A stretch of DNA of 38,806 nt from a virus. Where the stretch lies: the IMG/VR virus record IMGVR_UViG_3300029578_000027; one strand, written 5' to 3'. This document shows positions 740 to 37,328 of this stretch, one piece after another (the first letter of the stretch is position 1; the number at the start of each line of letters is the position of its first letter). The position numbers and the translations under genes were made by a program. The notes under the pieces are model-generated. The model saw only the letters and a list, made by a program, of their open reading frames with translations, was not told where the DNA came from and ran no database searches.

Positions 740-752
740 GTCCGAATCGGAC
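740..752. repeat. Dispersed palindrome copy 1, GTCCGAATCGGAC
   Basis: Perfect 13-mer in the non-coding region between the HNH gene and terS. Confidence 0.95.
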
Positions 753-1000
753 CGTGCCGCCCCACCGCGTCTACGTCAATACCCCGCGCATCCAGCGCAG
801 ACCTTCGGCGCAGGCAGGGCGGCAACTCCGGCCCATGACCCGGCCTCCGTGGTAGGTCACGGAGACCGGAAGGGAAGAAAGAGTGAAGCCGGCACAGGGG
901 CCGGGTCACAAGCCGGGTCGTGTTTTTTCATCAGCCAAAATCAGGCCTGGGCTCTACCGGACTCTGATAGCTCCAGCTGGACGCCTTCGGCAACCGAATC

Positions 1001-1140
1001 CCCTTCTGTGCCCTTTAGCCCGGCAGCATGTGTCCAAATCAGACCATCCTCCGTTTCTGTGCCCTTGCACCCGACAGCATGTCTCCAAATCGGTCCATCC
1101 ACTGCTTCTGTGCCCTTGAAACCGGCAGAATCATTTCCGC
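1001..1140. repeat. Tandem repeats with 51-bp period in the non-coding cos-like region
   Basis: TTCTGTGCCCTT occurs at 1004, 1055 and 1106. Units 1 and 2 also share CAGCATGTSTCCAAATCRGWCCATCC, containing degenerate palindrome copies at 1032-1044 and 1083-1095. Confidence 0.85.
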
Positions 1141-1250
1141 GCCCGCGCCGCCTGCGCGTCACGGCGCCGCGCACGCCCGTCGGCCCCTCTTTTGTCCTGG
1201 ACCCACCCGATTAGCAGCGAAAGGGTCAAAGCCGTTTTTCTCAAGGGGGG

Positions 1251-1622
1251 TCAATCCCACCGCTCAGCAGTGATTGGCAAGGCTTTCGGCTGAAATTGCC
1301 GCTGGCTCTCTGGATGCTCCAGCTCGTGGCATTGCTTGCACAGCGTCTCAAGCTGACGTTGGCCCGTATCCGGGTCAAACACGCTCAAAGCCAGGTCAGG
1401 CCGCTGCCGAAGGTGCTTGACGTGATGCACGATGTACCCCTTGCGGTAACGCCCAGCCGCCTTGCAGTGCTGGCACTCGTACCGATCCAGCCGGAGGACT
1501 TCCAGCCGCAGTGCCCTCCACTCAGGCCAAGAATAAAATTTATACTCATGGCCCGCCGCCAGCAGTGAGATCAGCTCCTGAAGTCTTGCGCCAGAGATAC
1601 CGGCACCGGCCATCTGTTCCAC
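1251..1622 (-). CDS. HNH endonuclease (packaging-associated type)
   Basis: Motifs CQHC...HHVKH...CKQCHELEH. GTG start at 1622 lies 8 nt after GGAGGT. Its position upstream of terS is typical of cos phages that use HNH plus terminase. Confidence 0.85.
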   Translation of the reverse strand: MEQMAGAGISGARLQELISLLAAGHEYKFYSWPEWRALRLEVLRLDRYECQHCKAAGRYRKGYIVHHVKHLRQRPDLALSVFDPDTGQRQLETLCKQCHELEHPESQRQFQPKALPITAERWD

Positions 1623-1640
1623 GGGCTATCACCTCCGGGC

Positions 1641-2068: not shown

Positions 2069-2773
2069 CTATTTCTCAGGCAGCAGATACCGGCTGTAGC
2101 CGTACAGCCCCCACCCGCCCAGCTGAGGACGGTCACGGCCCTGCATGGGCAGCGGCGTGGCGCCCTTGGGCAGCCGCACCATGCCGCTCTTGCAGGTGGT
2201 CACTTCCGGAGGCGGAAGGTACTTACTCAGCGCTCGGGAGCAGCCCCACGGGTGGCGGCCCACCTCCGGGACCTCCTTGGTGAAATAGATCGCCAGCCCA
2301 CGGTAGCCGCCCTCTGACAGCACCCGCGCCCGGTCCCAGCGCACGTCGTAGGCATTACCCCAGGTCCAGAGGTATTGCACCACGGCAGGTGGGAAATCTT
2401 GGTCACGCAAAAATGCGTGGATGTGGTAGCGGTGGTCACCGTGTAAGCCCTCCATCCGGTAAATGTAGAAATCTACAGGCTTGCGGCTCCATCTCCGGAG
2501 CCGCTTGAGGAAGGCATCCCACACGCGCTCTACACCGGCCCAGTTAGCCGGAAGATGGGCATTGTCAAAGTTGAGGCTGTAAAAAATGCCGTCGTAGCCA
2601 AACAACGCCAGGCGCAGCTCCAGCTTGTCCAGGCTGGTGCGGCTGAGGGCCGGCCCGCACCGGCCCCGCACCGCATCCGGTCCGTAGCGACGGAGATATC
2701 CGTAGTTGTCCGTCACCAGCGCCTTGACCAACGGCCCCGCCCGCTGCCGGACGCACACAAACGGATCAGCCAT
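2069..2773 (-). CDS. HUH-superfamily Rep-like endonuclease (rolling-circle initiator type)
   Basis: Three ordered motifs: FYSLNF (motif I-like), HRYHIHAFL (HUH) and AIYFTKE (YxxK catalytic Tyr). Confidence 0.6.
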   Translation of the reverse strand: MADPFVCVRQRAGPLVKALVTDNYGYLRRYGPDAVRGRCGPALSRTSLDKLELRLALFGYDGIFYSLNFDNAHLPANWAGVERVWDAFLKRLRRWSRKPVDFYIYRMEGLHGDHRYHIHAFLRDQDFPPAVVQYLWTWGNAYDVRWDRARVLSEGGYRGLAIYFTKEVPEVGRHPWGCSRALSKYLPPPEVTTCKSGMVRLPKGATPLPMQGRDRPQLGGWGLYGYSRYLLPEK

Positions 2774-5084: not shown

Positions 5085-5488
5085 AACGGCAGATCTCCTT
5101 CCTCATCCTCCGGGATCTCCCGGAAGTCCCCGGACGCAGGCGGTGCGGACGCTGTGTCCGATTCGGACCGCTTGCTGTCTCCAAAATACACATGCTCCGC
5201 CACCACCTCGGCGGAGCGCCGCTTGCCGCCGTCCTTGTCGGTCCAGTCCCGGAGCTGCAAGCGGCCCTCCACCACGGCCATGCGGCCCTTGGTAAAAAAC
5301 TTGTTCACGAAGTCCGCCGTGGAGCGCCACGCCACGATGTCCACGAAATCCGTCTCCTTCTCGCCGGACTGGCCCTTGTAGTCCCGGTCAACAGCCAGAG
5401 AGAAAGACGCCACGGCGGTTCCGTTTCCGGTGTGCCGCAGCTCAGGGTCGCGGGTCAGACGGCCCATCAGTACGATATGATTCAGCAT
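5081..5488 (-). CDS. ssb: Single-stranded DNA-binding protein
   Basis: OB-fold N-terminus MLNHIVLMGRLTRDPELRHT, and an acidic tail ending DEEGDLPF. Confidence 0.92.
   Translation of the reverse strand: MLNHIVLMGRLTRDPELRHTGNGTAVASFSLAVDRDYKGQSGEKETDFVDIVAWRSTADFVNKFFTKGRMAVVEGRLQLRDWTDKDGGKRRSAEVVAEHVYFGDSKRSESDTASAPPASGDFREIPEDEEGDLPF
5156..5168. repeat. Dispersed palindrome copy 2, GTCCGATTCGGAC
   Basis: Perfect 13-mer inside the disordered C-terminal linker of ssb, read as SESD. Confidence 0.95.
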
Positions 5489-5810: not shown

Positions 5811-6067
5811 GAGCCACCGCCTTTTGTGTCCAAGTCCATCACTTTTGCATTTTTGACTGCGTTAGCCTCCCAAAATTGTGGGTCCGTTGCCATGCGCTCT
5901 ATAGATTTTGCAAATAAGCGTGCAAATGTGGGGTGATTACGCTCAAGGCCCATATATATGCCTCGCAGCATATACCCAGTCTCAGCGATGATTTGTACAG
6001 GGTCCCCGCGCATATCGATCTCGCACGGACACTTATCACCTTGCAATTTTACCGTTACTTTAATCAT
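5807..6067 (-). CDS. Hypothetical early protein
   Basis: ATG 6067 overlaps the ParB stop. The tracked ORF 5807-6139 has a non-credible N-terminal extension. Confidence 0.55.
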   Translation of the reverse strand: MIKVTVKLQGDKCPCEIDMRGDPVQIIAETGYMLRGIYMGLERNHPTFARLFAKSIERMATDPQFWEANAVKNAKVMDLDTKGGGS

Positions 6068-7478
6068 TTCCGTCTCCTTTCCCTGCCGCTGGGACAGGCG
6101 GCAGCCGCATCCACCAGGCCACGGGGGCCTGTGCCTCAATGCCGCCCGGCATCATCCAGTGTTGGCCATCCCAGTCAAAAAACCGTTTCACAAGTTTTCC
6201 GTCGCCCAGGTCCACATAGGCCGCGAACTCTCCCGGCTCCGCCGGGTTGGTGCTGCCGGGCATCCATCCGGCGATCATCAGCTGGCCCTCCGGCAGCGCC
6301 GGCGGCGTAGGATCGTCCGTCAGGCCGTAGAGGTAGTCCGTACTGACGCCGAAGCACAGCGCCAGCTTGGCGATTTTCTCAGATCCGCACATGGAGGCGT
6401 TCTCGCACGCGCTGTATGTCCCCGGGAATTCGTCAATGCTCTGAGCAAATTCCTTCCGGCTCATGCCGGTCTGGATCCGCAGCTCCTTCACCCGCTGGCA
6501 GAAGGTGGGAACCATCACCTTGTAGTCCAGTCGGGGGTCCTTCACCGCCGGATTCACGGCCGGGGCTTCCGGCTCCTCCACCGGCTTTTTCTCCACATAC
6601 TGGCAGGCCGCCGGGCAGGTGTCCCGGTCCAGACAGTTCAGGCAGCAGTTGGAACCGTGCCACTCGCCGTATCGGTAGTCATGGTCATACATCCGCTCCG
6701 CGTTCTCGCACATCCGGCCGGTGTGCTCACAGCTCCGGCAAGCCATTGTATAGCAGGTAAAGAACTTCCGCACCTCGTTGATAGTGAGGCTCCGTCTCTT
6801 GTCGATGATCCAGTCCAGCAGCCGGTACTGCTCGTCAATGTCCATCCGGGCGATCTGCAAGGCCGCCGCCTCCGGGATCTCGTCCCGCTTCCATCGATCC
6901 ACCAGTCCCGGCACCTTGAGACCGTTCTTGATGGCCGACAGGTTAGCAACCTTGGTGGCCTTGACTTGCAGGGCCTCCGCCACATAGTCCCGGATGCGGC
7001 CCGGAAGCTGCTCACCGGCCTCCCGGCGCTTGATGTAGGCCTCCGTCAGACGCGCCGCCTCCTCGGCCAGCAGGGCATTGGACTTCACCCGCTGGCGGTT
7101 GGCCTCGATCACCGCCGCCTGCTCCTGCCCCTCCGACATTGGGGGCAGCACCCGGCACAGGATCTTGGCAAATCGCGCCCAGTCCTCCTCGGTGCCGTCC
7201 TCCCACATGCTTCGGATCGCCGCCAAACGGCTGTGGCCGGAGATCAGGCGATAGGTGCCGTCACCGGCAGGGACCACCGTAGGAGGCTCCAGCAAGCCGT
7301 TGGCCCGGATGGAGTCCGCCAGCGCCCGCAGTGCTTGAGGGTCGGGCGTCGGGTAGAAGTTCCGGGGATTGTCCCGGATATCGTCGATGGGAATCTCCAG
7401 CATGGTGTCCGCCACACCGGCCAGCTGCTCACCCAGCACGTCCATCACGTTAAATTTCCGCTTTTCCATCCTCAGCAC
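6060..7478 (-). CDS. parB: ParB/Srx N-terminal domain protein fused to a Cys-rich segment, an XRE-type HTH and a DUF551-like C-terminus
   Basis: IRDNPRNFY...LLEPPTVVP...YRLISGHSRLAAI is the ParB-N box. A ten-Cys block lies around CRSCEHTGRMC...CCLNCLDRDTCPAAC. HTH segment MSRKEFAQSIDEF...STDYLYGLTDD. C-terminal end is VAWWMRLPPVP. Overlaps the parA stop. Confidence 0.75.
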   Translation of the reverse strand: MLRMEKRKFNVMDVLGEQLAGVADTMLEIPIDDIRDNPRNFYPTPDPQALRALADSIRANGLLEPPTVVPAGDGTYRLISGHSRLAAIRSMWEDGTEEDWARFAKILCRVLPPMSEGQEQAAVIEANRQRVKSNALLAEEAARLTEAYIKRREAGEQLPGRIRDYVAEALQVKATKVANLSAIKNGLKVPGLVDRWKRDEIPEAAALQIARMDIDEQYRLLDWIIDKRRSLTINEVRKFFTCYTMACRSCEHTGRMCENAERMYDHDYRYGEWHGSNCCLNCLDRDTCPAACQYVEKKPVEEPEAPAVNPAVKDPRLDYKVMVPTFCQRVKELRIQTGMSRKEFAQSIDEFPGTYSACENASMCGSEKIAKLALCFGVSTDYLYGLTDDPTPPALPEGQLMIAGWMPGSTNPAEPGEFAAYVDLGDGKLVKRFFDWDGQHWMMPGGIEAQAPVAWWMRLPPVPAAGKGDGND

Positions 7479-8251
7479 CTCCCGGAGATCTCTTTCACCA
7501 GCGCGGCGTAGTCCTTGCTGGCCGCGCAGTAGGGACGGGCCACCGGCAGCGGCACTTTCTGGAAGGTCGCGCTGGGCACAGCCTTGGAGAACCGGATCGC
7601 CGTCTCAAACACCGGAAGCGCCCCGCCCCGGATGGCCGCGAGGGCCTCCTTCTCGTCCGCCATGTGGGTGAACTGCGTCACCAGCACGCCCAGCACCGAC
7701 AACCGGGGATTGATGGCCCGCATGTGCTGGAGCTGCTCCGCCAGATTGGCCATGCCGCCGGTGGAGTAGTAGTCCAGCCGGATGGGGATAATCACCTCAT
7801 CCGCAGCGGCCAGCGCCGCCGTGCAGGCTGCCGACAGGGCCGGCGGGCAGTCGATCAGGATGAGATCGTAGGCGTTGTCCTGGTCCGCGTCCTCCTCGAT
7901 GGCGTCCCGCAGATCCGCGATGGCCCGCTGCATCCGGCCTACGCCGCTCTGGGCCATGTGCCGGTCTGCTACCAGCAGGTTGATGTCAGAGGGGATCAGG
8001 TCGATCCCGTCAAAAATGGTGGGCGTCACAAACTCCGGATAGTACCCGGCGCCCTCGGTCAGGAGGGCCAGCGTGTCCGCGCCCTCCTCCGCGTCGATCC
8101 CGAAGGACATGCTCAGATTGCCCTGACTGTCCCCGTCGATCAGTAGGATCCGCTTGCCCTGCTTCGCCAGCAGATACGCCAGCGTGGCGGTGGTGACGGT
8201 TTTGCCGACCCCGCCCTTGAAATTTAATACCGCGATTGTTTTCATATTCAC
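7472..8251 (-). CDS. parA: ParA/Soj-type partition ATPase
   Basis: Deviant Walker A motif NFKGGVGKTVTT, and typical ParA length and layout. Confidence 0.9.
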   Translation of the reverse strand: MNMKTIAVLNFKGGVGKTVTTATLAYLLAKQGKRILLIDGDSQGNLSMSFGIDAEEGADTLALLTEGAGYYPEFVTPTIFDGIDLIPSDINLLVADRHMAQSGVGRMQRAIADLRDAIEEDADQDNAYDLILIDCPPALSAACTAALAAADEVIIPIRLDYYSTGGMANLAEQLQHMRAINPRLSVLGVLVTQFTHMADEKEALAAIRGGALPVFETAIRFSKAVPSATFQKVPLPVARPYCAASKDYAALVKEISGRC

Positions 8252-9825: not shown

Positions 9826-10573
9826 CCGTGTCACCTGCCTCCCAGCTCTCACTCCGGTCCGAATCGGACCGCCCCGGCAGCTCGTCCTCCCACCGGCGGC
9901 CGTTGAGCCATGTGGCGGGGTAGGGGATGTACGCCCCGCCGTCCCGCGTCCACTGCTCACAGGATGCCTGCGCCTTCAACGCCCGGAGGATGGTCTCCAC
10001 CAGCGCCTCGTCCGGCTTCAGCTTCGCCCAGGCCTTCCGCGCCCGCTGCTTGTCCACATGGCGGGGATACGCCGACCAAAACAAATCGAAGTGCGCATCT
10101 GCGCAGGGGGCTATAGGGGTATTTTTATTATTATCTTTTATACATTTAAAGGGGGGTGAAATTTTCTTCACCCCTGGGGTGCAGATTTTTTCAGGGGTGA
10201 AATTTTCTTCACCCCCCTGCGCATCGTCCGGAATCGCTGCCAGAGACCGCCCGATGTAGATCCGCCGACCGGTCCGCACCGTGCCGCTTTTATCCGGAGG
10301 AAGGGGGCCGTTATCCGTGTGGATGTGCCCCCGCTCTTGCAGCTCCGCCAGCATGGCCTGTACCGTCCGCTCAGACAGCACCCGCACGGAGCCGTCCTCG
10401 TCCACGGCAGTCATGTCCTCGATCAGCGTTGCGTTGGTTGCGTAGCAGAATCCCACCCGGTTGGCCCGCCGCGCGATCCGTGCGTATAGGATCAGCGACC
10501 GGGGCCGAAGCCCCGGATCGTCCAAAACCGGGCCGGGGATCCATGCCCCATAGCCGCAGTCATACCTTGCCAT
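9815..10573 (-). CDS. Replisome organiser / replication initiator-like protein
   Basis: N-terminal winged-helix-like part. The C-terminal motif FWSAYPRHVDKQRARKAWAKL...PYPATWLNGRRWED is typical of Firmicutes phage replication proteins. Contains an internal AT-rich repeat region. Confidence 0.7.
   Translation of the reverse strand: MARYDCGYGAWIPGPVLDDPGLRPRSLILYARIARRANRVGFCYATNATLIEDMTAVDEDGSVRVLSERTVQAMLAELQERGHIHTDNGPLPPDKSGTVRTGRRIYIGRSLAAIPDDAQGGEENFTPEKICTPGVKKISPPFKCIKDNNKNTPIAPCADAHFDLFWSAYPRHVDKQRARKAWAKLKPDEALVETILRALKAQASCEQWTRDGGAYIPYPATWLNGRRWEDELPGRSDSDRSESWEAGDTDGI
9855..9871. repeat. Dispersed palindrome copy 3 (17-nt form CGGTCCGAATCGGACCG)
   Basis: Perfect core at 9857-9869, in the C-terminal tail of the replisome organiser (read as SDSD). 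Confidence 0.95.
10119..10215. repeat. Candidate origin of replication: an AT-rich tract followed by two copies of the 22-nt hairpin repeat GGGGTGAAATTTTCTTCACCCC
   Basis: Copies at 10153-10174 and 10194-10215, with starts 41 bp apart. Each is an inverted repeat (GGTGAA/TTCACC). Preceded by gtatttttattattatcttttatacatttaaa. Embedded in the initiator gene, as in lambda-type ori. Confidence 0.6.
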
Positions 10574-10915: not shown

Positions 10916-11752
10916 CTACCAATTAATTGTTTTATTAACTGCGTCCTGCTGCTGCTCTTTTGTCATCCGAGTATAAATTGCTGTCGTTGAAACGCTGGAA
11001 TGGCCAAGAACATCTGCCAGAAGAGATATGTTGTTGTTCCGCCGCAGGAATTGGACTGCAAACATGTGCCGAAAAGAGTGTGGATGCATGACTTTTTTAT
11101 CAATCCCATACCGCGCAGCAAACGTCATAAGCATTTGAGAAACGCCTCTGGTCGTGATTTGCCCTCCGTCTCGTCCAACAGCAAGAAAATCGTCCGGCCC
11201 AAAACCCGAATAATACCCATCAGCTTCATCCAGAAATGATTTCGGAATGTAAATCCTTCTAATTTTACCTTTCGTCCACATTTCCGCGTACCCTCTTGAA
11301 AAATCTGTTTTTTTTAGCCGCACATACTCACTAACACGGCAGCCAGTCGAAGCCAGTAACTTGATATTGTAATACCAGCGCATATTTCCATCATTTTTCA
11401 ATCCATCCAGCAGCTTTTTGTAGTCTTGTTCGGATATAACATTACTAACAGCTGTAGCCTGATGGACGCGCATCGTCTTGACTTTGCTTCCATCATCGTG
11501 AACCATCCCGCAGAACGAATTAAATGCATTGAGCTTAATGTTGATGGATTTCGCCTTCAATCCTTTTTCCTGTAGTTCCCGTTTCCAATCGAGGCCGTTT
11601 TTCTTTGATATTTTTCCGAATGATGAAAAGTACTGTTCCATCGCAGTTATGTATGCCCTTACGGTATTGTCAGACAGCTCTTTATCCTCGAGGTACTCAC
11701 GGAAAGACTCTATTTGATTTTTGCACGCCTCACCGCTTCGTCTTTTGCCCAC
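10916..11752 (-). CDS. Tyrosine recombinase (XerC/D-like), second copy in this genome
   Basis: N-terminal SAM-like domain (FREYLEDKELSDNTVRAY). Catalytic signature: TGCRVSE, HSFRHMFA, LGHSSVSTTAIYTRM. Confidence 0.85.
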   Translation of the reverse strand: MGKRRSGEACKNQIESFREYLEDKELSDNTVRAYITAMEQYFSSFGKISKKNGLDWKRELQEKGLKAKSINIKLNAFNSFCGMVHDDGSKVKTMRVHQATAVSNVISEQDYKKLLDGLKNDGNMRWYYNIKLLASTGCRVSEYVRLKKTDFSRGYAEMWTKGKIRRIYIPKSFLDEADGYYSGFGPDDFLAVGRDGGQITTRGVSQMLMTFAARYGIDKKVMHPHSFRHMFAVQFLRRNNNISLLADVLGHSSVSTTAIYTRMTKEQQQDAVNKTINW

Positions 11753-12283: not shown

Positions 12284-12382
12284 TTAATTCCGAAAACCCT
12301 CCATCAGATCCACGATCCGCAGTGGGATTGCCGCCACCGTCGCCACGCCGACGACCATGAAAAACATCGCCCAACCGGTCAC
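12284..12382 (-). CDS. Possible 32-aa membrane peptide
   Basis: GTG start forms a GTGA overlap with the stop of 12379-12957. Encodes VTGWAMFFMVVGVATVAAIPLRIVDLMEGFRN. Below the ORF-track cutoff. Confidence 0.3.
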   Translation of the reverse strand: MTGWAMFFMVVGVATVAAIPLRIVDLMEGFRN

Positions 12383-12957
12383 AGGGATACGCCCCCTTCC
12401 CGGCGAAAATTAGGGCTTGCGTGCAGCGTGGACCTTGTGCTATAATTGATACATCCAGTGGTTGATCCAATACCACACACTTTTTCCCCTGAACGCTCTG
12501 AGGTGCCAGCCTCGGGGCGTTCTCTTTTTGCGCCTGAGTAGATCACCTGGTAGATGGCCGCCATGGTCTCCCGCAGCTCCACCACGATGGAATCGAACTC
12601 CGGCCGCTCAGCCTCGTCAATCACGCCGTCCTCCGCGATCCGGAGCAGGGCATCCAACCGGCCAGTCGCGTCTTGCAGACGGTTCCGCAGGGCGATGCTC
12701 GCCATTGGAAGCGGCCTTGGCGTCACCTCCGGCATCACGCCCAGCGTGTCCGTGGCCTGCGCGTGCTCCAATGCCAACCATGGGCAGCTGTACGCCTCCA
12801 CCATCTTGGCCACCGTCTCATCCTTGGGCACCGTCTTGCCGCCCTCGTACTGTTTCAGACTTTCCGGCGACAGTCCAAGCAGCTCCGCTGCACGTTCTTG
12901 GCTCATTCCGGTACTCAGCCTTGCCCTCTGGTACAAATTCGGGTACTTCCGCTCCAT
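12379..12957 (-). CDS. XRE-family HTH protein with extended C-terminal domain
   Basis: N-terminal segment ARLSTGMSQERAAELLGLSPESLKQYEGGKTVP is an XRE helix-turn-helix. Confidence 0.7.
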   Translation of the reverse strand: MERKYPNLYQRARLSTGMSQERAAELLGLSPESLKQYEGGKTVPKDETVAKMVEAYSCPWLALEHAQATDTLGVMPEVTPRPLPMASIALRNRLQDATGRLDALLRIAEDGVIDEAERPEFDSIVVELRETMAAIYQVIYSGAKRERPEAGTSERSGEKVCGIGSTTGCINYSTRSTLHASPNFRREGGVSL

Positions 12958-12978: not shown

Positions 12979-13191
12979 CTACCATGTAACCATCCACCGT
13001 GCCAATGGTACAATGGGGATGATGTAGCGCTTCCCAACTTTCTTGGCCGGGAAGCCGGCATTGTGGACCAGTGCGTCCCAGTCCAGACCCAGCAGTTTGC
13101 AGGCCTGATCCTTGGTCAGAACCTCCTGCTCCGGGAATTTTGCCTGCAAGGATTGCAGCTGATCCCGAAAGCTCTCACGCTCTCGTGCCAT
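12979..13191 (-). CDS. Excisionase-type (MerR-like) HTH DNA-binding protein
   Basis: ATG 13191 is preceded by GGGAGGAG. LTKDQACKLLGLDWDALVHNAGFPAKKVGKRYIIPIVPLARW fits the excisionase-family HTH pattern. Confidence 0.6.
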   Translation of the reverse strand: MARERESFRDQLQSLQAKFPEQEVLTKDQACKLLGLDWDALVHNAGFPAKKVGKRYIIPIVPLARWMVTW

Positions 13192-13207: not shown

Positions 13208-13411
13208 TCACGCGCTCTCCGTCCGCTGGACGATCTCCTCGATGGGGACACCGAAGATCAGCGTCATGCGAAAAACTCTCTCCAGCTCCGGGGTCCGCTG
13301 GCCCAGCTCCCACTTGCTCACCGTGGGGACGGTGACGCCCAGCTGGTCAGCCAGCGCCTTCTGGGTCATGCCGGCCGCCGTCCGCAGCTCCTTGACTCTG
13401 TTAACGATCAT
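13208..13411 (-). CDS. Cro-like XRE HTH regulator
   Basis: 67 aa, RVKELRTAAGMTQKALADQLGVTVPTVSKWELGQRTP. Divergent from the CI-like gene. Confidence 0.8.
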   Translation of the reverse strand: MIVNRVKELRTAAGMTQKALADQLGVTVPTVSKWELGQRTPELERVFRMTLIFGVPIEEIVQRTESA

Positions 13412-13429
13412 GATTGCTCCTTTCCCGCC

Positions 13430-13458
13430 TTGACGGCGTTGCCCCGGTGTGGTATATT
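13430..13458 (+). promoter_or_regulatory. Sigma-A-type promoter reading rightwards toward the CI-like gene
   Basis: TTGACG (13430-13435), a 17-nt spacer, then TATATT (13453-13458) preceded by TGg (extended -10). Confidence 0.6.
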
Positions 13459-13489
13459 GTCCTCGGGGCTATGTCCTCTATGGATATAA
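13442..13489. repeat. 48-bp promoter/operator cassette, copy 1 (46/48 identical to 14229-14276)
   Basis: CCCCGGTGTGGTATATTGTCCTCGGGGCTATGTCCTCTATGGATATAA. Contains the inverted repeat GCCCC...GGGGC around the -10. Confidence 0.9.
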
Positions 13490-13559
13490 ATTATCACTCA
13501 ATTTAGCGTTTGTAAAGTAGTTTTCGCTATTTTTAATGATTTTGGAGGTTCGTACAAAA

Positions 13560-13814
13560 ATGAACCATATAGGCTTGTACAAATCCCCAAATATAGCGGA
13601 TTGCGTTAAAGCCATGGCTAAGACGCAAGGTGTGACAATCAAAACCATGCTGACAGACTTAGAACTGGGTTCTAATACGATGTCCAATATGCGGCATGAT
13701 CGGATGATTGCCGCAGACAGTCTCGCCAAGATCGCTGATTATCTGGACTGCTCCGTGGACTACCTCTTGGGCCGCACAGACGACCCGCAGAGCCACCGAA
13801 AGGAGCACGGATGA
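13560..13814 (+). CDS. CI-like XRE repressor
   Basis: XRE HTH ending in the typical DYLLGRTDDP. ATG 13560 follows GGAGG at 13544. The tracked ORF begins at 13536. Confidence 0.75.
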   Translation: MNHIGLYKSPNIADCVKAMAKTQGVTIKTMLTDLELGSNTMSNMRHDRMIAADSLAKIADYLDCSVDYLLGRTDDPQSHRKEHG

Positions 13815-13987
13815 ACGGGCCAAAGATCCACCGTGAAATATTGGAGAGCAGCAAAGAAATTTGTCGGCGCCAGAAAAAAGAAACCAAGAAAAAAGCGCTT
13901 AAAAGCTGGCTGGCCGCAAATATCATTGCAATTTTGGCGCTGATCGTCAGCGTCGTCTCCGTCCTCATTTCAGCATTGCGAGAATAG
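13811..13987 (+). CDS. 58-aa C-terminally membrane-anchored protein, translationally coupled to the CI-like gene
   Basis: ATGA overlap at 13811-13814. Encodes MNGPKIHREILESSKEICRRQKKETKKKALKSWLAANIIAILALIVSVVSVLISALRE. Below the ORF-track cutoff. Confidence 0.45.
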   Translation: MNGPKIHREILESSKEICRRQKKETKKKALKSWLAANIIAILALIVSVVSVLISALRE

Positions 13988-14048
13988 CGGATGTAATGGC
14001 AAGCAGCATTGCCAGCAGGCTGATCCAATTTTTCCGAAGAAAGTTCAT
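13965..14048 (-). CDS. 27-aa hydrophobic peptide
   Basis: ATG 14048 is preceded by GAGGAGG. Encodes MNFLRKNWISLLAMLLAITSAILAMLK. Its 5-prime region (18 nt) is identical to that of the peptide gene at 14199. Confidence 0.45.
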   Translation of the reverse strand: MNFLRKNWISLLAMLLAITSAILAMLK

Positions 14049-14118
14049 GCGGCGCCTCCTCTCTTGATGTTTTGGCACCTTGCCAACTTCGTAGTGGGCT
14101 TTCTTTCCGGCGTCCTTG

Positions 14119-14199
14119 CTACAGTAGCTGCAGCCTTGATAAGACAAGCAGTGCTGCGATAATTCCGCAGATATAGCCAAGGACGTAAGTCCCTTTCAT
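14119..14199 (-). CDS. 26-aa hydrophobic peptide
   Basis: ATG 14199 is preceded by GAGGAGG. Encodes MKGTYVLGYICGIIAALLVLSRLQLL. Shares the upstream 18-mer GCCTCCTCTCTTGATGTT (plus-strand reading, 14207-14224 versus 14054-14071). Confidence 0.45.
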   Translation of the reverse strand: MKGTYVLGYICGIIAALLVLSRLQLL

Positions 14200-14216
14200 T
14201 CCTTGTGCCTCCTCTC

Positions 14217-14245
14217 TTGATGTTCTGGCCCCGGTGTGTTATATT
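14217..14245 (+). promoter_or_regulatory. Sigma-A-type promoter (paralogue of 13430-13458) toward the XRE gene at 14346
   Basis: TTGATG (14217-14222), a 17-nt spacer, then TATATT (14240-14245) preceded by TGt. Confidence 0.6.
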
Positions 14246-14276
14246 GTCCTCGGGGCTATGTCCTCTATGGCTATAA
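14229..14276. repeat. 48-bp promoter/operator cassette, copy 2
   Basis: CCCCGGTGTGTTATATTGTCCTCGGGGCTATGTCCTCTATGGCTATAA, with two mismatches to copy 1. Confidence 0.9.
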
Positions 14277-14282
14277 TATACT

Positions 14283-14336
14283 CGGTACTTTCGGTACTGT
14301 CAACACTTTTGGGACTATTTCGTTACTTTCGGTACT
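14283..14336 (+). repeat. Four CGGTACT heptads (two 16-nt direct repeats) in the leader of the XRE gene
   Basis: CGGTACTTTCGGTACT at 14283-14298 and CGTTACTTTCGGTACT at 14321-14336. Confidence 0.8.
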
Positions 14337-14345
14337 TTACACAAA

Positions 14346-14672
14346 GTGCAGGGCGGTGTTTTTGTGTTTTATGATAATTTCATAAGGGCATGTAATTCTG
14401 TTGGGAAAACACCGTCTGCTGTTTTGCTTGAACTCGGAATAGGCAAATCAGCTAATACTCGGTGGAAAAACGGCCACGCCCCAACTGATGCCATTTTGCA
14501 AAAATTGGCTGATTATTTCAAAATAACAAAAGAGGAACTCTTAGGCAAAGAGAAACGCCCGTCCCCCGAAGGGGACGAGCGTCCAGAATGCTGGGACCTG
14601 CTTACCCGCGAGGAGCGGGAGAAGGCGCGGGAGTATATCGAGATGCTAATAGCTGCGCGAGGTAAGCGTTGA
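14346..14672 (+). CDS. XRE-family HTH regulator
   Basis: FYDNFIRACNSVGKTPSAVLLELGIGKSANTRWKNG. The start is GTG 14346 or GTG 14364. C-terminal motif LLTREEREKAREYIEMLIAAR. Confidence 0.75.
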   Translation: MQGGVFVFYDNFIRACNSVGKTPSAVLLELGIGKSANTRWKNGHAPTDAILQKLADYFKITKEELLGKEKRPSPEGDERPECWDLLTREEREKAREYIEMLIAARGKR

Positions 14673-14769
14673 CTTGCTCACGCTCCTCCGGCGTCAACTG
14701 GCGATAGAGCGCCAGGGTCATGTGGTCGCGGTCCGAATCGGACACCGTGCGGGTGATCTGGTTGCTCAT
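14602..14769 (-). CDS. 55-aa protein resembling the C-terminal motif of the convergent XRE regulator
   Basis: ATG 14769 is preceded by GGGAGG at 7-nt spacing. Encodes MSNQITRTVSDSDRDHMTLALYRQLTPEEREQVNAYLAQLLASRYTPAPSPAPRG. The 3-prime 71 nt overlap the convergent gene 14346-14672. Confidence 0.4.
   Translation of the reverse strand: MSNQITRTVSDSDRDHMTLALYRQLTPEEREQVNAYLAQLLASRYTPAPSPAPRG
14731..14743. repeat. Dispersed palindrome copy 4, GTCCGAATCGGAC
   Basis: Perfect 13-mer. It lies in the small minus-strand ORF (read as SDSD), between plus-strand genes. Confidence 0.95.
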
Positions 14770-14841
14770 GGTGATGCCTCCCAAACATATATTCAAGGCC
14801 CAAGCCTCGGGCCTAATTTTAACAGATTGGATGTGGAGCGA

Positions 14842-15270
14842 ATGAAAAGGGGATTTTTAGCCGGAGTTCTGGCGACGCTGCTGGTCATGTGCCTGGTCAG
14901 CACGGCAGGCGCCACCAGCGGCAAGGTACAGCAGGAAATTGAGTATCGTGATATCAAGGTATCTCTGGACGGTCAGGTGCTGGATCTGCGGGACGCCAAG
15001 GGCAACACCGTTGAGCCCTTCATGTTCGCCGGAACGAACTATATCCCCGCCCGCGCTCTGGCGGAGTCTCTGGGCCTTCAGGTGGCGTGGGACGGCTCCA
15101 CCGCTACCGTGGTGCTGACGCACCCGGAAGCCTCCAAGCCTACCTACATCACCCGCACCGGCAGCAAATACCACAACGATCCCCATTGCAACGGTGGCAC
15201 CTACTGGGAAGTGCCTTACAGCACCGCCACCGGCATGGGCCTGACGCCCTGCGACAAGTGCGTCCACTGA
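14842..15270 (+). CDS. Secreted protein with a copper-amine-oxidase-N-like (stalk) domain and a C-terminal His/Cys motif
   Basis: Signal peptide MKRGFLAGVLATLLVMCLVSTAGA. NYIPARALAESLGLQVAWDGSTATVVL fits the Cu-amine-oxidase N1 repeat. Tail is TGSKYHNDPHCNGG...TPCDKCVH. Confidence 0.6.
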   Translation: MKRGFLAGVLATLLVMCLVSTAGATSGKVQQEIEYRDIKVSLDGQVLDLRDAKGNTVEPFMFAGTNYIPARALAESLGLQVAWDGSTATVVLTHPEASKPTYITRTGSKYHNDPHCNGGTYWEVPYSTATGMGLTPCDKCVH

Positions 15271-15273
15271 CTT

Positions 15274-15684
15274 ATGGGCTGGAGATATCGCAAAAGCGTT
15301 AAAGCAGGCCCGTTCCGCCTGAACTTTAGCAAATCCGGCATAGGGTACAGCGTCGGAAGCAAACGCTACCGCGTCACCAAAACCGCCAAGGGCACCGTCC
15401 GGGAGACCGTCACGCTGCCCGGTGGCCTGTCCCATGTGACGGAGCACAAAATCGGCAGCGGCGCAAAAAACAGCGCTCCCCAGCGCCGCCCCCGGTTCCG
15501 GGCAAAGATCGTCTGGGGCGTGCTGTTTCTCATAAGCGGCGCGGCCTATGGCGTCAAAGATCCGGAAACGGCATGGTTGACGTGCCTCGTGGGAGCCGTC
15601 CTGATCGGATGGGGCGTGTGCATCCGCAGAAAACTCAAAAATTCGGAACGTCCTGTTGCTGAGACGTCAGAAGAAGATAAATAA
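15274..15684 (+). CDS. DUF4236-like membrane protein
   Basis: N-terminus MGWRYRKSVKAGPFRLNFSKSGIGYSVG matches the DUF4236 signature. Two predicted C-terminal TM helices. Confidence 0.6.
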   Translation: MGWRYRKSVKAGPFRLNFSKSGIGYSVGSKRYRVTKTAKGTVRETVTLPGGLSHVTEHKIGSGAKNSAPQRRPRFRAKIVWGVLFLISGAAYGVKDPETAWLTCLVGAVLIGWGVCIRRKLKNSERPVAETSEEDK

Positions 15685-15688
15685 GTAA

Positions 15689-15733
15689 GTGCCCCGTCGC
15701 CTCTGCAACAAGCGGCGGGGCACTTTGCGTTTC
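15689..15733 (+). terminator. Intrinsic terminator (plus strand)
   Basis: A 12-bp stem, GTGCCCCGTCGC (15689-15700) with GCGGCGGGGCAC (15712-15723), including one G-U pair, followed by TTTGCGTTTC. Confidence 0.7.
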
Positions 15734-15889
15734 CGGCAGAGGGGGCGTCTGCCTGTCCGCAAGGAAACCGTACCAGAAATGGGTTTGGCAGCGCAATGCC
15801 CAAATTGGGGAAATGTGCAGTATACTGCCGGACCGGATTTGAGACTTTACCTGCCCATATTGGGAAATTTAACACAGGAGGGCGATTTT

Positions 15890-16303
15890 TTGACGATACA
15901 AGATCTATGCAGAGATAAAAAAGCCGCGTTGCACATGACGGCGCAAGACATCGCGGATCAATCGGGCGTGCCGCTGTCCACCGTCAATAACTTTTTTGCA
16001 AATGCGTCAAAAGCGCCATCCATCAATACCGCGGGGCCGATCTGCGCTGTCCTGGGGATTTCCATTGATGAGTTTTTTGGCATAGGGAATCACTATACGG
16101 CCACGGAAGAAACCTTGCAGGCTGAGAAAGTCGGCCTTGAGAAGCGTCTATCCAACAAACGTGAGATCATTACGATGATAAAGCAGGGCGTCAAGACCCG
16201 GAACCGCATCATTGCCGCCCTGATCGTGCTCCTGTTCCTGGCCATCCTGTACGGCCTGTATCTGGATTTCAGCTGCGTCCAGGTCGGCTTCTGGCGGGGG
16301 TAA
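15890..16303 (+). CDS. Membrane-anchored XRE HTH protein
   Basis: TTG start at 15890 lies 6 nt after AGGAGGG. HTH segment MTAQDIADQSGVPLSTVNNFF. C-terminal TM helix IIAALIVLLFLAILYGLYL. The tracked ORF starts at 15689 inside the terminator. Confidence 0.6.
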   Translation: MTIQDLCRDKKAALHMTAQDIADQSGVPLSTVNNFFANASKAPSINTAGPICAVLGISIDEFFGIGNHYTATEETLQAEKVGLEKRLSNKREIITMIKQGVKTRNRIIAALIVLLFLAILYGLYLDFSCVQVGFWRG

Positions 16304-16306
16304 CTC

Positions 16307-18070: not shown

Positions 18071-18084
18071 GGGGCCGCACCCCC

Positions 18085-19728: not shown

Positions 19729-19760
19729 AGAAAAACTCCTTTCGATTTTTTATTCATCAA

Positions 19761-19774: not shown

Positions 19775-19779
19775 GTTGA

Positions 19780-20419: not shown

Positions 20420-20420
20420 T

Positions 20421-20952: not shown

Positions 20953-21020
20953 TATATAGTACAAAAAATCCGGACAGCCAAACTGCCCGGAAACTGCCTG
21001 TATTCTGCCCTCAAACTGCC
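20953..21020 (-). promoter_or_regulatory. Candidate regulated promoter of the cargo cassette: three phased GGCAGTTT repeats upstream of a TACTATATA -10-like element
   Basis: In plus-strand reading, AAACTGCC occurs at 20980, 20991 and 21013 (spacings 11 and 22 bp). The -10-like element is at 20953-20961. No recognisable -35. Confidence 0.4.
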
Positions 21021-21055
21021 CGAAAAAAGCCGTGTCCGATTCGGACACGGCTTTT
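21021..21055 (-). terminator. Intrinsic terminator built around dispersed palindrome copy 5
   Basis: Perfect 31-nt palindrome AAAAGCCGTGTCCGATTCGGACACGGCTTTT (21025-21055), with the core 13-mer at 21034-21046. On the minus strand it is followed by TTTTTT. Confidence 0.75.
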
Positions 21056-21056
21056 C

Positions 21057-21293
21057 TCATCCCTGCATATCATCCGCAATCTTGGCGTAGGCACGCCGCC
21101 GGATTTTCGCGAGGCCGTCCACGCTGACGTGGAGCAGCGCCGCCGCCTGTAGGCAACTTTGCCCGTTGACGTCCACCGCCAGCACCGCCGTCTCCTCGTC
21201 AGGCGGAAGCCCTACCAGCCGGACGGCCTGCGCCGCCCGGGCCGGGGCCATGGATGACAACAGCGCCCGGATCTCTCGGTTTGTTTTTTCCAT
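21057..21293 (-). CDS. Small sigma-70 region-4-like HTH protein
   Basis: LPPDEETAVLAVDVNGQSCLQAAALLHVSVDGLAKIRRRAYAKI parallels the region 4.2 pattern (LPxxxRxVLxL...S..EIA..LGxSxGTVKSRL.RA). Confidence 0.6.
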   Translation of the reverse strand: MEKTNREIRALLSSMAPARAAQAVRLVGLPPDEETAVLAVDVNGQSCLQAAALLHVSVDGLAKIRRRAYAKIADDMQG

Positions 21294-21362
21294 GGGTTCC
21301 CCAGACTTGCAGAGCGCGTTCCCGCGTGGGTGTTGCCATCTTCTGGCCCTCCTCTCAATAGT

Positions 21363-25149: not shown

Positions 25150-25764
25150 TCACACTTCTCCGGCGTACAGCTCGCCGGAGAAGTACCACGATTTTATGAG
25201 TTTGTTGATCAGCGCATCAAGGTCAAGCAAGATCTGCTCGATGTTGTTGGCCCGGATGTAGTCCAGCTGCCGGATCGTCTCCGGCGTTTCCGGCGTGGAC
25301 TGCATCACTGCGATCTGCCGCCGCAGGGTGGCAATGTTCTGCCGGTACGTCTCCATCTGGCTGGCCGTTGGTGTGTCCGATTCGGACCAGTCCTTTTTCA
25401 CGCTTACCGGGCAATCATAGCCAAGCGCCTGGAACCGTCCCGCTACATACTCAACCGCCGCACCTACCCGGTTGAGGTCCGTGGCGTTGTAAAACCCCTT
25501 CGCAGTCTTGTTCGCCACATCCATCGCCGTCCGGTCTGTAACGAGAGTCAGTAGCCCGTAGTAGAGCGTCAGGTCAAAGTTGGTGCTTGTCCCCGCCGCA
25601 TTGGCGGCGGTGAGGGCAACGTGATAGGTATCATCCACTGCCCGGTCCACCGTAGCCGTCCACGCCCCCTCGATCAGCGTCCATGTGTAGGCCGTCCCGT
25701 TGACGGTGCCCGTCACATAAATGATCTCAGAGGGCAGCGTGACGCTTAAAACCTGCGTGCTCAT
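25150..25764 (-). CDS. Tail fibre component (204 aa)
   Basis: YNATDLNRVGAAVEYV...LDYIRANNIEQILLDLD...SWYFSGELYAGEV is a pattern seen in Clostridia prophage fibre proteins. Confidence 0.6.
   Translation of the reverse strand: MSTQVLSVTLPSEIIYVTGTVNGTAYTWTLIEGAWTATVDRAVDDTYHVALTAANAAGTSTNFDLTLYYGLLTLVTDRTAMDVANKTAKGFYNATDLNRVGAAVEYVAGRFQALGYDCPVSVKKDWSESDTPTASQMETYRQNIATLRRQIAVMQSTPETPETIRQLDYIRANNIEQILLDLDALINKLIKSWYFSGELYAGEV
25375..25387. repeat. Dispersed palindrome copy 6, GTCCGATTCGGAC
   Basis: Perfect 13-mer inside the fibre component gene (read as SESD). Confidence 0.95.
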
Positions 25765-32308: not shown

Positions 32309-32321
32309 GTCCGATTCGGAC
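32309..32321. repeat. Dispersed palindrome copy 7, GTCCGATTCGGAC
   Basis: Perfect 13-mer in the 37-bp gap between the gp10-like gene and the major tail gene. Confidence 0.95.
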
Positions 32322-35282: not shown

Positions 35283-35300
35283 AATGTTCTCCTTTCATTT

Positions 35301-36107
35301 TTAGCCAAACAGGCTCATAATACGGTTTTTCTGCTGGGGTTCGGGCTGAGGCTCCGGGTCTTTCGGATCAGGAGGGCAAGGCGGTTTATGACCAGTGTCC
35401 GCCGTCAACTGCCGGAGCTGGGCGGCAAGACTTTTCTGCACGGTGATCCGCTGCTCCAAAGTCAGGTTGGCCTTTTGCAGCAGAGCCGCAGCCTGGGTCA
35501 TGTCCGCGTCCTTTTCCGCGTAGCGGTCGGCCAATCCCAGCTCCATGCACTGTTCAGCCGTCAGCCAGGTCTCCGCGTCATACATTTCCTTCAGGGTATC
35601 CGGGTCCAGCTTGTCACCGGCTTTTTGGAGATAGGCTTCCATCCCCGCCTGATTGATGGTGTCCAGATTGTCTGCGGCCTTTCGCAGCTCAGCTGCGTTT
35701 CCGTAAATGCCCATGCTCATGTTGTGGATCATCATGAGGGCGTTGCGCGGCATCACCACCGTGTCGCCGGCCATTGCGATGACCGAGGCGATGGAACAGG
35801 CAAAGCCGTCCACATACACCGTCTTGTGGGCGCTGTGCCGCTTGAGCTGGTTGTAGATGGCCGTGCCCTCAAATACACTGCCGCCGTAGCTGTTGATGTA
35901 CACGGCGATCTCCGTCGCCTCCGGATGCTCCGCCAGCGCGTCCCGGAAGGCGTTGGCGCTGGTCTCGCTCTGGATCGTCTCGTCGGTCCACCAGTCATAG
36001 CTGTCGCCCTCCACGTCTCCGTAGATGTAAAGCTCCAGTGTCTTGGCGTCCTCCGCCCGCTGCTTAAGCGCCCACATCCTCCGTTCCTTCTGCTTGGGAT
36101 TACTCAT
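35301..36107 (-). CDS. Prohead protease (ClpP/S14-like)
   Basis: YINSYGGSVFEGTAIYNQL...GFACSIASVIAMAGD...MMIHN. Overlaps the portal stop. Confidence 0.85.
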   Translation of the reverse strand: MSNPKQKERRMWALKQRAEDAKTLELYIYGDVEGDSYDWWTDETIQSETSANAFRDALAEHPEATEIAVYINSYGGSVFEGTAIYNQLKRHSAHKTVYVDGFACSIASVIAMAGDTVVMPRNALMMIHNMSMGIYGNAAELRKAADNLDTINQAGMEAYLQKAGDKLDPDTLKEMYDAETWLTAEQCMELGLADRYAEKDADMTQAAALLQKANLTLEQRITVQKSLAAQLRQLTADTGHKPPCPPDPKDPEPQPEPQQKNRIMSLFG

Positions 36108-37296
36108 TCCCGCTGTCTCCTTTCTGTGCGTTCATCTGCTGCGCGGCTTCTAGGATCCGCGCGATGTTCAAAGTCAAAAAGTGCTCGTCGGCCCACGGTT
36201 CGTTGATGGTGGCCTGATTGGCCGCCCGCAGCACATCGTTGACCGAGAAGGCGCCACTGCCCACCAGCTTTTCCACGTTGGCAGCGTTGGCAAACATGTC
36301 AAAGTGGAGGATGGCGGAGGAATCAACCCGGACAAAATTGCCCTGTTTCCAACCGTCAAAGCCGTACCGCTTTCGGGTGATCTCCTCCTGGAGCTGATCG
36401 CAGATGGGGTCAATACACTGGGTCAAAAAGCGGCTGTTGGCGTCCGCTGTGCCCTGAACGGTGCCGTTCACCAGCACAGCGGGGATCAGAAAGCCCCGGG
36501 CGGTAAAATCAAAAATGTCCTCGATCAGGTTCCGCACGTCCCGGCTGTCGCTTTGCTTTCCCTCGCCAGTTTTATTGACCTGCTGGTAGTCATAGCCGTC
36601 AAACTCCGGGAGCACCGCCGCGCCGCTGCCAAAAAACGGTTTGATCTGCTGCTCGATGATTTTGGCAAAATTTTGCTCAAAATCCTGCGTGCCGGATGCG
36701 ATCTGATTGACGTGGACCTTCCAGTGCTGCCCACGCTCCCACTGATAGCGGCTCATAGCCGCTGCCACCAGCCGCATGTAGGACTGGCACAGACCGTCCA
36801 CCACCGGGCGCATGGCGTTGTGGTGGAGTTTTAAATGCAGCACCTCGTTTTCCCGGAAGGTTTTTTCATAGGCGGTGTCGCCCACCGTCACGTTGATGTA
36901 CTCATTCATCCGCATCGGCCAGAAGGTGTTCTGCTGCCAGCTGTCCGCCACCATCACCGCGTCCATGCCGTCCCGCCGCTTACTGGAGATCACCAGCGCT
37001 TCATTGTCCAAAAACAGCTTGGCGATCAGTTTGTGCCAGAATGCGGAGCTGTTCTGGTTCACGTTGGGCTCCACATTCCACAGGTAATACTCCTGCTCCT
37101 GGATCTCCTCCCGCCCCCGGAAGGTCTTTACCTCGCAGCGGCCCACGGCGTTGGCCACCATGTTCACGCAGGTCCAGAAGGAAAGCTGCCGCGCCTGAAA
37201 GTCTTCGGCCGCCGCCAATAGCTCCTGACAGGAGACCTCCGCCGTGGCGGTTCGTCCACCCTTTCCCGCCAGCCATTCAAAAAATCTCAATCCCAT
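36100..37296 (-). CDS. Portal protein (HK97 family)
   Basis: 398 aa between terL and the protease. GGAGAAAGG RBS. Confidence 0.85.
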   Translation of the reverse strand: MGLRFFEWLAGKGGRTATAEVSCQELLAAAEDFQARQLSFWTCVNMVANAVGRCEVKTFRGREEIQEQEYYLWNVEPNVNQNSSAFWHKLIAKLFLDNEALVISSKRRDGMDAVMVADSWQQNTFWPMRMNEYINVTVGDTAYEKTFRENEVLHLKLHHNAMRPVVDGLCQSYMRLVAAAMSRYQWERGQHWKVHVNQIASGTQDFEQNFAKIIEQQIKPFFGSGAAVLPEFDGYDYQQVNKTGEGKQSDSRDVRNLIEDIFDFTARGFLIPAVLVNGTVQGTADANSRFLTQCIDPICDQLQEEITRKRYGFDGWKQGNFVRVDSSAILHFDMFANAANVEKLVGSGAFSVNDVLRAANQATINEPWADEHFLTLNIARILEAAQQMNAQKGDSGNE

Positions 37297-37311
37297 AGTT
37301 CAGCCTTTCTC

Positions 37312-37328
37312 CGGTCCGATTCGGACCG
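37312..37328. repeat. Dispersed palindrome copy 8 (17-nt form CGGTCCGATTCGGACCG)
   Basis: Core at 37314-37326, filling the gap between the terL stop (37329) and the portal RBS. Confidence 0.95.

Follow-up and report, generated by a model that had tools for sequence, protein, structure and literature searches.

Short palindromes repeated without variation across a genome have been noted in a few phage groups, and the present analysis concerns an array of this kind: eight exact copies of the 13-bp palindrome GTCCGAWTCGGAC in the virus record IMGVR_UViG_3300029578_000027 of IMG/VR, the whole 38,806-nt stretch of which is called the window here. The linear plasmid-prophage N15, which has a plasmid-only lifestyle and encodes ParA/ParB-type proteins, carries four dispersed sopC-like palindromic centromere sites, and the mobile element RK2 has 12 OB sites. 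The KorB-OB and KorA-OA systems of RK2 use perfect palindromes of 12-13 bp that are dispersed on the element and exert an effect at a distance (PMC11790492). In Cluster O mycobacteriophages, 17-bp dyad repeats (TGTTCGGNNNCCGAACA; 34 copies in Corndog) are spread over the genome, and their binding by a dimeric protein was predicted by the authors (PMC4351075). The stoperators of Cluster A mycobacteriophages are 13-bp sites inside transcription units, which are thought to block elongation and to silence the prophage; they are read by a monomeric immunity repressor, and sites and reader co-evolve (PMC9283540, PMC6550527). SPBRE, an element of about 15 bp repeated at about ten places in the Bacillus prophage SPbeta, is bound by the master repressor MrpR, which was identified after 24 years (PMC10516654).

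By analogy of organisation, the closest described feature is the set of Cluster O repeats: both arrays have invariant arms, genome-wide dispersal, intergenic as well as intragenic copies placed mostly off promoters, and central bases without orientation bias, and a dimeric binding protein is proposed for the window array as well. The resemblance is in kind only, the sequences being unrelated and the geometry being 7-3-7 there and 6-1-6 here. Moreover, the Cluster O repeats occur about once per 2 kb and are skewed to one genome end, in phages that are not obviously temperate; they rarely lie at rearrangement junctions, and neither decay lineages nor a candidate reader were reported for them, whereas the window has about one site per 4.8 kb, evenly placed, with 7-8 copies per genome. 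The stoperators share with the window the occurrence of many 13-bp sites within the transcription units of a temperate phage genome (four of the eight window copies are coding and three lie in gaps too tight for a promoter). Nevertheless, stoperators are asymmetric and oriented with transcription, while the window site is a perfect palindrome with an unbiased central base, and the presence of the same motif in heteroimmune relatives argues against an immunity repressor as its reader. RK2 combines a ParB-family CTPase with a ParA (IncC) and the small dimeric helix-turn-helix (HTH) protein KorA, and in the window ParA and ParB are likewise accompanied by a small HTH protein, with a model similar to KorA (TM 0.52). 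However, the operator sequences are unrelated, RK2 sites lie mainly in or near promoters whereas window sites are mostly inside operons or genes, and the ParB type in the window family does not track the motif; no window protein had detected sequence homology to KorA or KorB. The SPBRE copies are located in promoter regions, and MrpR has a catalytically dead tyrosine-recombinase fold, whereas the Xer-like recombinase of the window (10916-11752) is missing from most array-bearing relatives. As in N15, several identical palindromic sites are scattered over a phage genome encoding ParA/ParB-type proteins, but the window phage integrates, has 7-8 evenly spaced sites and has a ParB that fits poorly as reader. 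Even spacing, constant copy number, independence of the immunity repressor, in-frame coding linkers and a different candidate reader set the array apart from the Cluster O repeats, the stoperators, SPBRE and the RK2 operators alike, and an exact-string literature search returned no paper containing the motif.

A search of the whole window found the copies at 740, 5156, 9857, 14731, 21034, 25375, 32309 and 37314, exactly where an earlier first-pass annotation of this DNA had listed eight perfect copies. In a k-mer check against shuffled controls, 0 of 100 dinucleotide-preserving shuffles contained a match, as against eight copies in the window, and allowing two mismatches added a sole further match, at 1032. 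The ends of the window overlap by 99 bp, making it a circular assembly of 38,707 bp unique length, and the gap between copies across the circle junction is 2133 bp; the circle and this gap had both been proposed earlier. The claim that the sites are spread rather than clustered at one operator can be put more strongly, as the gaps are more regular than random (coefficient of variation 0.277, P=7e-4) and the largest gap of 6934 bp is small for a maximum (P=0.002; both from 200,000 random placements). The 13-bp core is a 6-1-6 palindrome, and the consensus site of the array extends to 15 bp, KGTCCGAWTCGGACM, with the half-site (CG or GT)GTCCGA. The symmetric flanks and the longer palindromes described by the annotation (17 nt at 9855 and 37312, 31 nt at 21025-21055) were likewise read from the sequences around the copies.

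The placements given in that annotation (the cos region, the terL/portal and tail gaps, the position after the sigma-like gene and those within genes) also proved correct. Copy 1 (tGTCCGAATCGGACc, 740-752) belongs to the non-coding stretch on the cos side, upstream of terS, and is separated by 3 nt from a DUF3800-VIII RNA match; its homologue is kept in relatives with other terminase modules. Copy 2 (5156-5168) is within the C-terminal tail of SSB, where it reads S-E-S-D on the minus strand, and copy 6 (25375-25387), inside a 204-aa tail gene, also reads S-E-S-D. Copy 3 (9857-9869), part of the 17-nt palindrome from 9855, encodes S-D-S-D in the 3' end of the gene for the DnaD-like initiator, 32 nt upstream of the DnaB-like start. 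Copy 4 (14731-14743), in the lysogeny module, can be placed between a 102-aa XRE gene and a 142-aa secreted-protein gene or, alternatively, in the first codons of a 55-aa minus-strand open reading frame (ORF), in which it would read S-D-S-D. Copy 5 (21034-21046), directly 3' of a sigma-region-4-like gene, forms the tip of a terminator hairpin; here the 31-nt palindrome (21025-21055, minus strand) and the T-run after it make up an intrinsic terminator, with a constant core and an outer stem that differs between relatives. Copy 7 (32309-32321) fills the gap from the stop codon of a 169-aa gene to the Shine-Dalgarno sequence of the major-tail-like gene, and copy 8 (37314-37326), within the 17-nt palindrome from 37312, similarly fills that from the terL stop codon to the portal Shine-Dalgarno sequence; this layout recurs in unrelated modules of relatives. 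The coding copies (SSB tail, initiator C-terminus, tail protein and small ORF) all use the same sense-strand frame, giving S-E/D-S-D, and sit in tails and linkers of proteins. A fifth coding context, the ParB N-terminal peptide of relatives, uses this frame too. Since a single coding frame is permitted and the motif is conserved in non-homologous modules, there is clear evidence of selection on the DNA sequence itself. Three copies of a 51-bp tandem repeat (999-1150), between the HNH gene and terS, contain degenerate motif-like cores at 1032 (GTCCAAATCAGAC) and 1083 (CTCCAAATCGGTC); these could be either weak sites or repeats for cos/terS recognition, and their membership of the array is uncertain.

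Relatives of the window were recovered by an IMG/VR scan with protein-anchored follow-up searches and form a large, highly mosaic family of human-gut contigs, in which several of the counts by variant type were made by eye. The search of related phages for the motif, which the first-pass annotation had put forward as a check, yielded 84 perfect copies, five one-mismatch copies and 11 two-mismatch near-matches in twelve tiled genomes with the sigma-like gene, with 7-8 perfect copies per nearly complete genome. Conservation extends to non-homologous modules: the type-2 phage has only a 37%-identical protease in common with the structural genes of the window, yet its copies recur at intervals of 3.8-4.3 kb; near the 3' end of each of two unrelated initiator types there is a copy, as there is in each of two ParB N-terminal variants. 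For the family as a whole, 95 non-redundant gaps have a median length of 4.6 kb, and only 3% of them fall below 2 kb, as against about 35% calculated for a Poisson arrangement of equal density. Four flanks of integrated prophages, composed of host or integrative and conjugative element (ICE) DNA (9.8, 9.7, 6.4 and 7.5 kb, about 33.5 kb), contained neither a copy nor a near-copy with up to two mismatches. A 14-mer scan of genome contigs gave, among the matches listed, single chance matches in unrelated taxa and is uninformative on the host background. Because the motif is kept in non-homologous modules and is absent from about 33.5 kb of host flank, selection appears to act at the level of the phage and module by module, indicating that the array is a property of the phage lineage and not a host background repeat. 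The possibility of a generic host repeat, which the earlier annotation had itself raised, was examined against REP/BIME, uptake-sequence, Chi and HIP-like elements and rejected on density, with zero copies in that flank.

The constraint on the array can disappear, as in lineage B (IMGVR 3300013936_000141 with two further contigs), whose early genes are those of the window but which has no perfect copy; five homologous sites were seen in it, with one or two mismatches each, and no replacement repeat was seen there. Type C carries three perfect and three one-mismatch copies, and many other terL relatives retain one-mismatch relics only, which are far more frequent than the calculated chance expectation of about 0.02 per 20 kb. 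A gene-presence screen, in which intact and relic-only loci around a C-type terL were compared over 10 kb on either side, revealed no discriminating gene. Lineage R (IMGVR_UViG_3300014949_000022; L399/L441/L479) has its sites at the same positions, but GCCCGA has replaced GTCCGA in 8 of its 12 half-sites, with few changes beyond this T-to-C, so its site specificity has apparently shifted. It is integrated at tRNA/asnS, unlike the window type, which lies beside ctsR-clpC; a walk to the prophage end showed endolysin, holin and then the host tRNA and asnS, without the sigma-like gene. The recognition helix of its ParB also differs, and a Xer-like integrase lies between its tail genes and endolysin. 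The sequence GTCCAATTCGGAC of types C and R was considered as a terminator relic and rejected, being located instead in a baseplate-like gene. A large natural family in which the array is intact, decaying or shifted by lineage is well suited to finding the reader by comparative genomics.

The copies are probably, if only narrowly so, docking sites at the DNA level for a two-fold symmetric, sequence-specific DNA-binding protein, with about one perfect site per module of about 5 kb. The proposal of a genome-wide array for a dimeric phage protein, made in the first-pass annotation, thus stands as the best supported for the array and the dimer, while the readers named there are unsupported. Binding of a protein, its identity and the effect of binding are what we infer from the sequence comparisons, and the spacing rule is the strongest mechanistic clue. 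Selection on coverage is suggested by the lack of large gaps, the near-absence of close pairs and the constant 7-8 copies: about one perfect site would be kept per ~5-kb module, such that the whole circle would lie within about 2-3.5 kb of a bound protein, close redundant copies would not be maintained, and exchanged modules would each bring their own site. A coverage layout of this kind would point to a bound protein with a distance-limited effect. Such a protein could act in the manner of stoperators, as a roadblock or insulator by which stray transcription is halted within a few kb. It could instead load at the sites and spread over a few kb as a clamp or filament, like KorB and ParB; compaction through regular loops would be an alternative. 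The most likely function would be genome-wide transcriptional insulation or silencing, by roadblock or by short-range spreading. It is conceivable, although doubtful, that the sigma-region-4 protein or another small phage or host factor uses the array as an evenly spaced scaffold to insulate, silence or compact the genome, and that the array is inherited by module through mosaic exchange, decays on loss of the reader (lineage B) and co-evolves with a shift in specificity (lineage R). If true, the scaffold would represent a previously undescribed phage “chromatin” with a spacing rule. Should the reader be a stand-alone sigma-region-4 domain or a ParB-type clamp, the array would offer a model of whole-chromosome organisation or silencing in a temperate phage and of the survival of such a system through modular recombination. 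Compared with the dispersed palindromes described so far, it adds tractable features, namely strict spacing, 7-8 copies per ~38-kb genome and selection on the DNA sequence, and the motif is a sharp marker of this phage supercluster in metagenomes.

The leading candidate for the reader, tentatively, is the 78-aa protein encoded at 21057-21293 (minus strand), a sigma-70-region-4/KorA-like HTH protein whose gene served merely as a landmark in the first-pass annotation. It matches Pfam Sigma70_r4_2 with E=1.4e-4, under the curated cutoff, and a profile search of PDB sequences gave nothing significant. Its AlphaFold2 (AF2) model has a pLDDT of 93.6, and Foldseek places the model nearest to region 4 of the extracytoplasmic function (ECF) factor SigmaE on -35 DNA (TM 0.64, E=0.04), with KorA at TM 0.52 (E=0.2). 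A perfect motif follows 14-17 nt past the stop codon of the sigma-like gene in 78 of 80 relatives, sitting in at least three different outer terminator stems. The protein is 96-98% identical in nine of nine tiled genomes with the window-type array and in the type-2 phage. The diverged version in the heteroimmune L265-type genome, which has eight perfect motif copies, retains the recognition helix unchanged. The gene is the only one found in all intact-array genomes and missing from lineage B, where it is cleanly absent and the endolysin runs directly into a terminator with a one-mismatch core. Perfect versus imperfect copies are associated with presence of the gene (Fisher test, odds ratio 14, P=4e-7), a support that is overstated as the genomes are non-independent.

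Several observations weigh against the docking of a sigma-like or other dimeric protein as set out above. The evidence is comparative, most relatives having been seen only as partial contigs and the compared lineages not being phylogenetically independent. Group D, about half of the phages with the sigma-like gene, has only a single gene-adjacent copy within 20 kb, and the gene is therefore not sufficient for an array. Lineage R is without the gene, yet its sites show the directional GCCCGA shift rather than decay, which looks like the mark of a surviving reader with altered specificity. The gene was also not found in the stretches of type C that were searched, and a 96%-identical type C relative has the same endolysin-holin end. 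Sigma-like homologues of 40-55% identity occur in the same synteny and are followed by ordinary unrelated terminators, and no repeats were found in the loci of these distant homologues. Further, roadblocks inside the late operon would be counter-productive if the sigma-like gene is expressed with it, and symmetric double changes occur in the decayed sites, where G.U-compatible ones also appear to be in excess (the latter counted by eye), a hint of some selection on structure.

The structural hint bears on the reading of the copies as hairpins (GUCCG-AWU-CGGAC) in RNA or single-stranded DNA that a sequence-specific RNA-binding protein or nuclease would recognise, marking processing, stability or pausing every ~5 kb in the long operons, which we judge very improbable. 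Features in accord with it are the copy that forms a true terminator tip, the intergenic copies that fit exactly into the space from a stop codon to the following Shine-Dalgarno sequence, and the stem-preserving double changes of decayed lineages (GTTCGATTCGAAC, and GCCCGAWTCGGGC at several sites), along with the excess of G.U-compatible sense-strand transitions. However, no stem covariation was seen among the 84 perfect copies, the bare 13-mer folds weakly as RNA (-4.9 kcal/mol), and the central W shows no strand bias (28 A vs 27 T over 55 site classes oriented by local coding strand). Among the eight window copies, that at 21034 alone has an extended stem and T-run, and no Rfam family covers the motif itself, the neighbouring DUF3800-VIII RNA being the only match. 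An intrinsic terminator or structured RNA element was rejected for the copies other than copy 5, as these have neither an extended stem nor a T-run. The flanking bases also bear on the level of reading: position -1 is always G or T and its mirror +1 always A or C (110 of 110 half-sites examined), and the two flanks are mutually complementary in only 12 of 32 non-terminator site classes, judged by eye, and not in the other 20. As this K...M rule holds while the flanks are mostly non-complementary, each half-site appears to be constrained independently, which is the signature to be expected of a symmetric dimer on duplex DNA and not of a longer hairpin, and the element is best described as a putative 15-bp protein-binding site. 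A half-site serving as promoter -35 element was also rejected, there being no consistent -10 element downstream on inspection of the flanks and no space at the intergenic copies. Quite improbable, too, is the view that co-resident mosaic phages recombine their modules, site-specifically or by microhomology, with the palindromes as hot spots or linkers, perhaps through the conserved HUH Rep-like or Xer-like enzymes, and that concerted evolution homogenises the copies. Among 136 unique homology breakpoints between the window and its relatives, 11 are no more than 20 bp from a site (0.85% expected), an enrichment of about 10-fold, and four no more than 10 bp (0.43% expected); there is about one site per exchangeable module, the swap junction of the ParB N-terminus coincides with a motif copy, and one variant spread over many lineage R sites would fit gene conversion. 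Nevertheless, about 90% of the breakpoints lie elsewhere, about half of the sites are at gene boundaries, where mosaic junctions gather anyway, and a fully palindromic core would permit inversions besides exchanges. Moreover, the HUH protein is intact in decayed lineage B and the Xer-like gene occurs in only a minority of array phages.

A protein other than the sigma-like one may read the sites, and the atypical ParB (6060-7478, minus strand), which the first-pass annotation had named among its candidates, is the obvious rival. The copies would then be parS/OB-like loading sites for ParB and ParA, from which CTP-dependent clamps slide a few kb in the manner of KorB and so cover the entire genome, serving partition, condensation or long-range silencing. 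The protein consists of ParB_N (26.5 bits, residues 26-89), an HTH, a Cys-rich region, an XRE-type HTH_3 and a conserved DUF551-like C-terminus; ParB-like PHROG families also match, and a ParA (7472-8251, minus strand; AAA_31, E=2e-43) is encoded together with it, as in ParABS and KorB-OB systems. The 13-bp 6-1-6 geometry is that of the KorB OB core TTTAGCGGCTAAA (PMC11790492), and invariant perfect sites with distance-limited coverage would be expected from clamp loading. Where relatives have a type-b ParA, a copy lies within the opening codons of parB; the N-terminal peptide of ParB changes together with the ParA type, which suggests a functional pair, and the motif-shifted lineage R has a different ParB recognition helix. 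Against this, site specificity does not track the DNA-binding domain of ParB, in contrast to the co-variation, and joint loss, of reader and site to be expected of a ParABS or KorB-OB system. ParB is a mosaic protein whose central ParB_N/HTH domain occurs in at least three types (relatives L262, L265, L267, L276 and L399), so that domains 35-39% and 26-30% identical to that of the window are found alongside the same motif. Distant ParBs, such as chromosomal ones, can share parS, and low identity alone leaves a common specificity possible. Lineage B retains an intact type-1 ParB (75% identity) with the same HTH as its array-bearing relatives while all its sites have decayed; in addition, the L265-type ParB is without the HTH_3 region and its array is intact, and no separate parS-like cluster was found near parAB. 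ParB as reader is disfavoured, and the loading-site model appears rather unlikely. A host factor is also possible as reader, and unlikely in our estimation: the array would then be an adaptation of the phage to a host-encoded DNA-binding protein, and its sites would decay (B) or shift (R) in lineages that went over to hosts without this protein or with a variant of it. This would accord with the lack of a phage gene found in all array lineages (A, type 2, L265-type, C and R) and missing from B, and with lineage R, which shifts to GCCCGA without the sigma-like gene and at a different integration site (tRNA/asnS). It sits poorly with the absence of any copy or near-copy from the ~33.5 kb of host flank and with group D, whose lysis and right-arm modules are 94-100% identical to the window and whose hosts are presumably the same, yet which has no array.

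The XRE regulators, which the first-pass annotation had also suggested as readers, are likewise unsupported. The 192-aa XRE protein (12379-12957) was rejected on account of its recognition helix, which is identical in decayed lineage B. An immunity repressor was rejected with the heteroimmune L265-type, which keeps eight perfect canonical copies with a different CI/Cro cassette; in it the Cro-like 67-aa HTH protein (13208-13411, minus strand), likewise rejected, is replaced by a 36% homologue. This Cro-like protein is 98-100% identical in typical array phages over 22 nucleotide variants, with 29 of 36 variable sites synonymous, and is under strong purifying selection. No motif copy lies in the switch region and Cro-like promoter region (13412-13559). 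The conserved half of that region has two TGTCC direct repeats, and relatives have exchanged the divergent CI-like gene (13560-13814), the breakpoint being at 13488/13489. The 70-aa Xis-like protein (12979-13191) is missing from several array phages and was discarded as reader, and so was the HUH Rep-like protein (E=8e-23) as a reader of the REP-RAYT type, the HUH and Tyr motifs being intact in lineage B and the repeats not flanking its gene. The latter gene (2069-2773, minus strand; phrog_3584, with HxH and YFTKE motifs) is 83-97% conserved across the family and coexists with a complete theta-type replication module in a temperate siphovirus.

The window has a G+C content of 57% and, from ORF-based gene calls, nearly all of its genes are on the minus strand, the lysogeny module (13560-17341) being the exception. 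The main features include terS, an HNH gene and the non-coding cos-side region (650-1250), the head-tail-lysis block, a “right arm” of accessory genes and, in addition, a tyrosine integrase gene. Replication and maintenance are represented by the DnaD-like initiator, DnaB-like helicase, ParA, atypical ParB, SSB and HUH Rep-like protein, and regulation by the divergent CI-like/Cro-like pair and several XRE proteins. The window-type prophage integrates between the ctsR-mcsA-clpC region and an ICE-like region with ArdA, DUF4314 and DUF3849 (loci L242-L248, L286-L290, L241/L285 and L244/L288). A homologue of the sigma-like protein is present in a metagenome-assembled genome (MAG) of Dysosmobacter sp.; this makes a human-gut bacterium of the Oscillospiraceae the probable host, and the phage family, itself from the human gut, probably infects Dysosmobacter and related Oscillospiraceae. 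Contigs of 77-79 kb with an intact attP resemble head-to-tail dimers, which suggests replicating or packaged concatemers.

Some neighbouring features are conserved in their own right. The DUF3800-VIII RNA match (RF03075; 756-823, minus strand) scores 50.1 bits against a gathering score of 40.2, and the block around it (642-916) is 85-87% identical in phages with three unrelated terminase modules, lineage B included. Upstream of the sigma-like gene (21294-21362, minus strand), a strong Shine-Dalgarno sequence and an ATG at 21338 start a 47-codon low-complexity ORF, which overlaps the start of the sigma-like gene out of frame; the ribosome-binding site of the sigma-like gene itself is weak. The motif-bearing terminator is followed immediately on its 3' side by a block (20969-21030, minus strand) of three to four GGCAGTTT repeats with a second terminator (20969-20991), and many relatives have kept this block. 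The right arm from the lysis genes to attP (17573-20831, minus strand) encodes DUF7841, a BclA_C-like protein and Gly- and Cys-rich proteins, and is common at 80-99% identity to a separate group of ~43-kb phages without the array.

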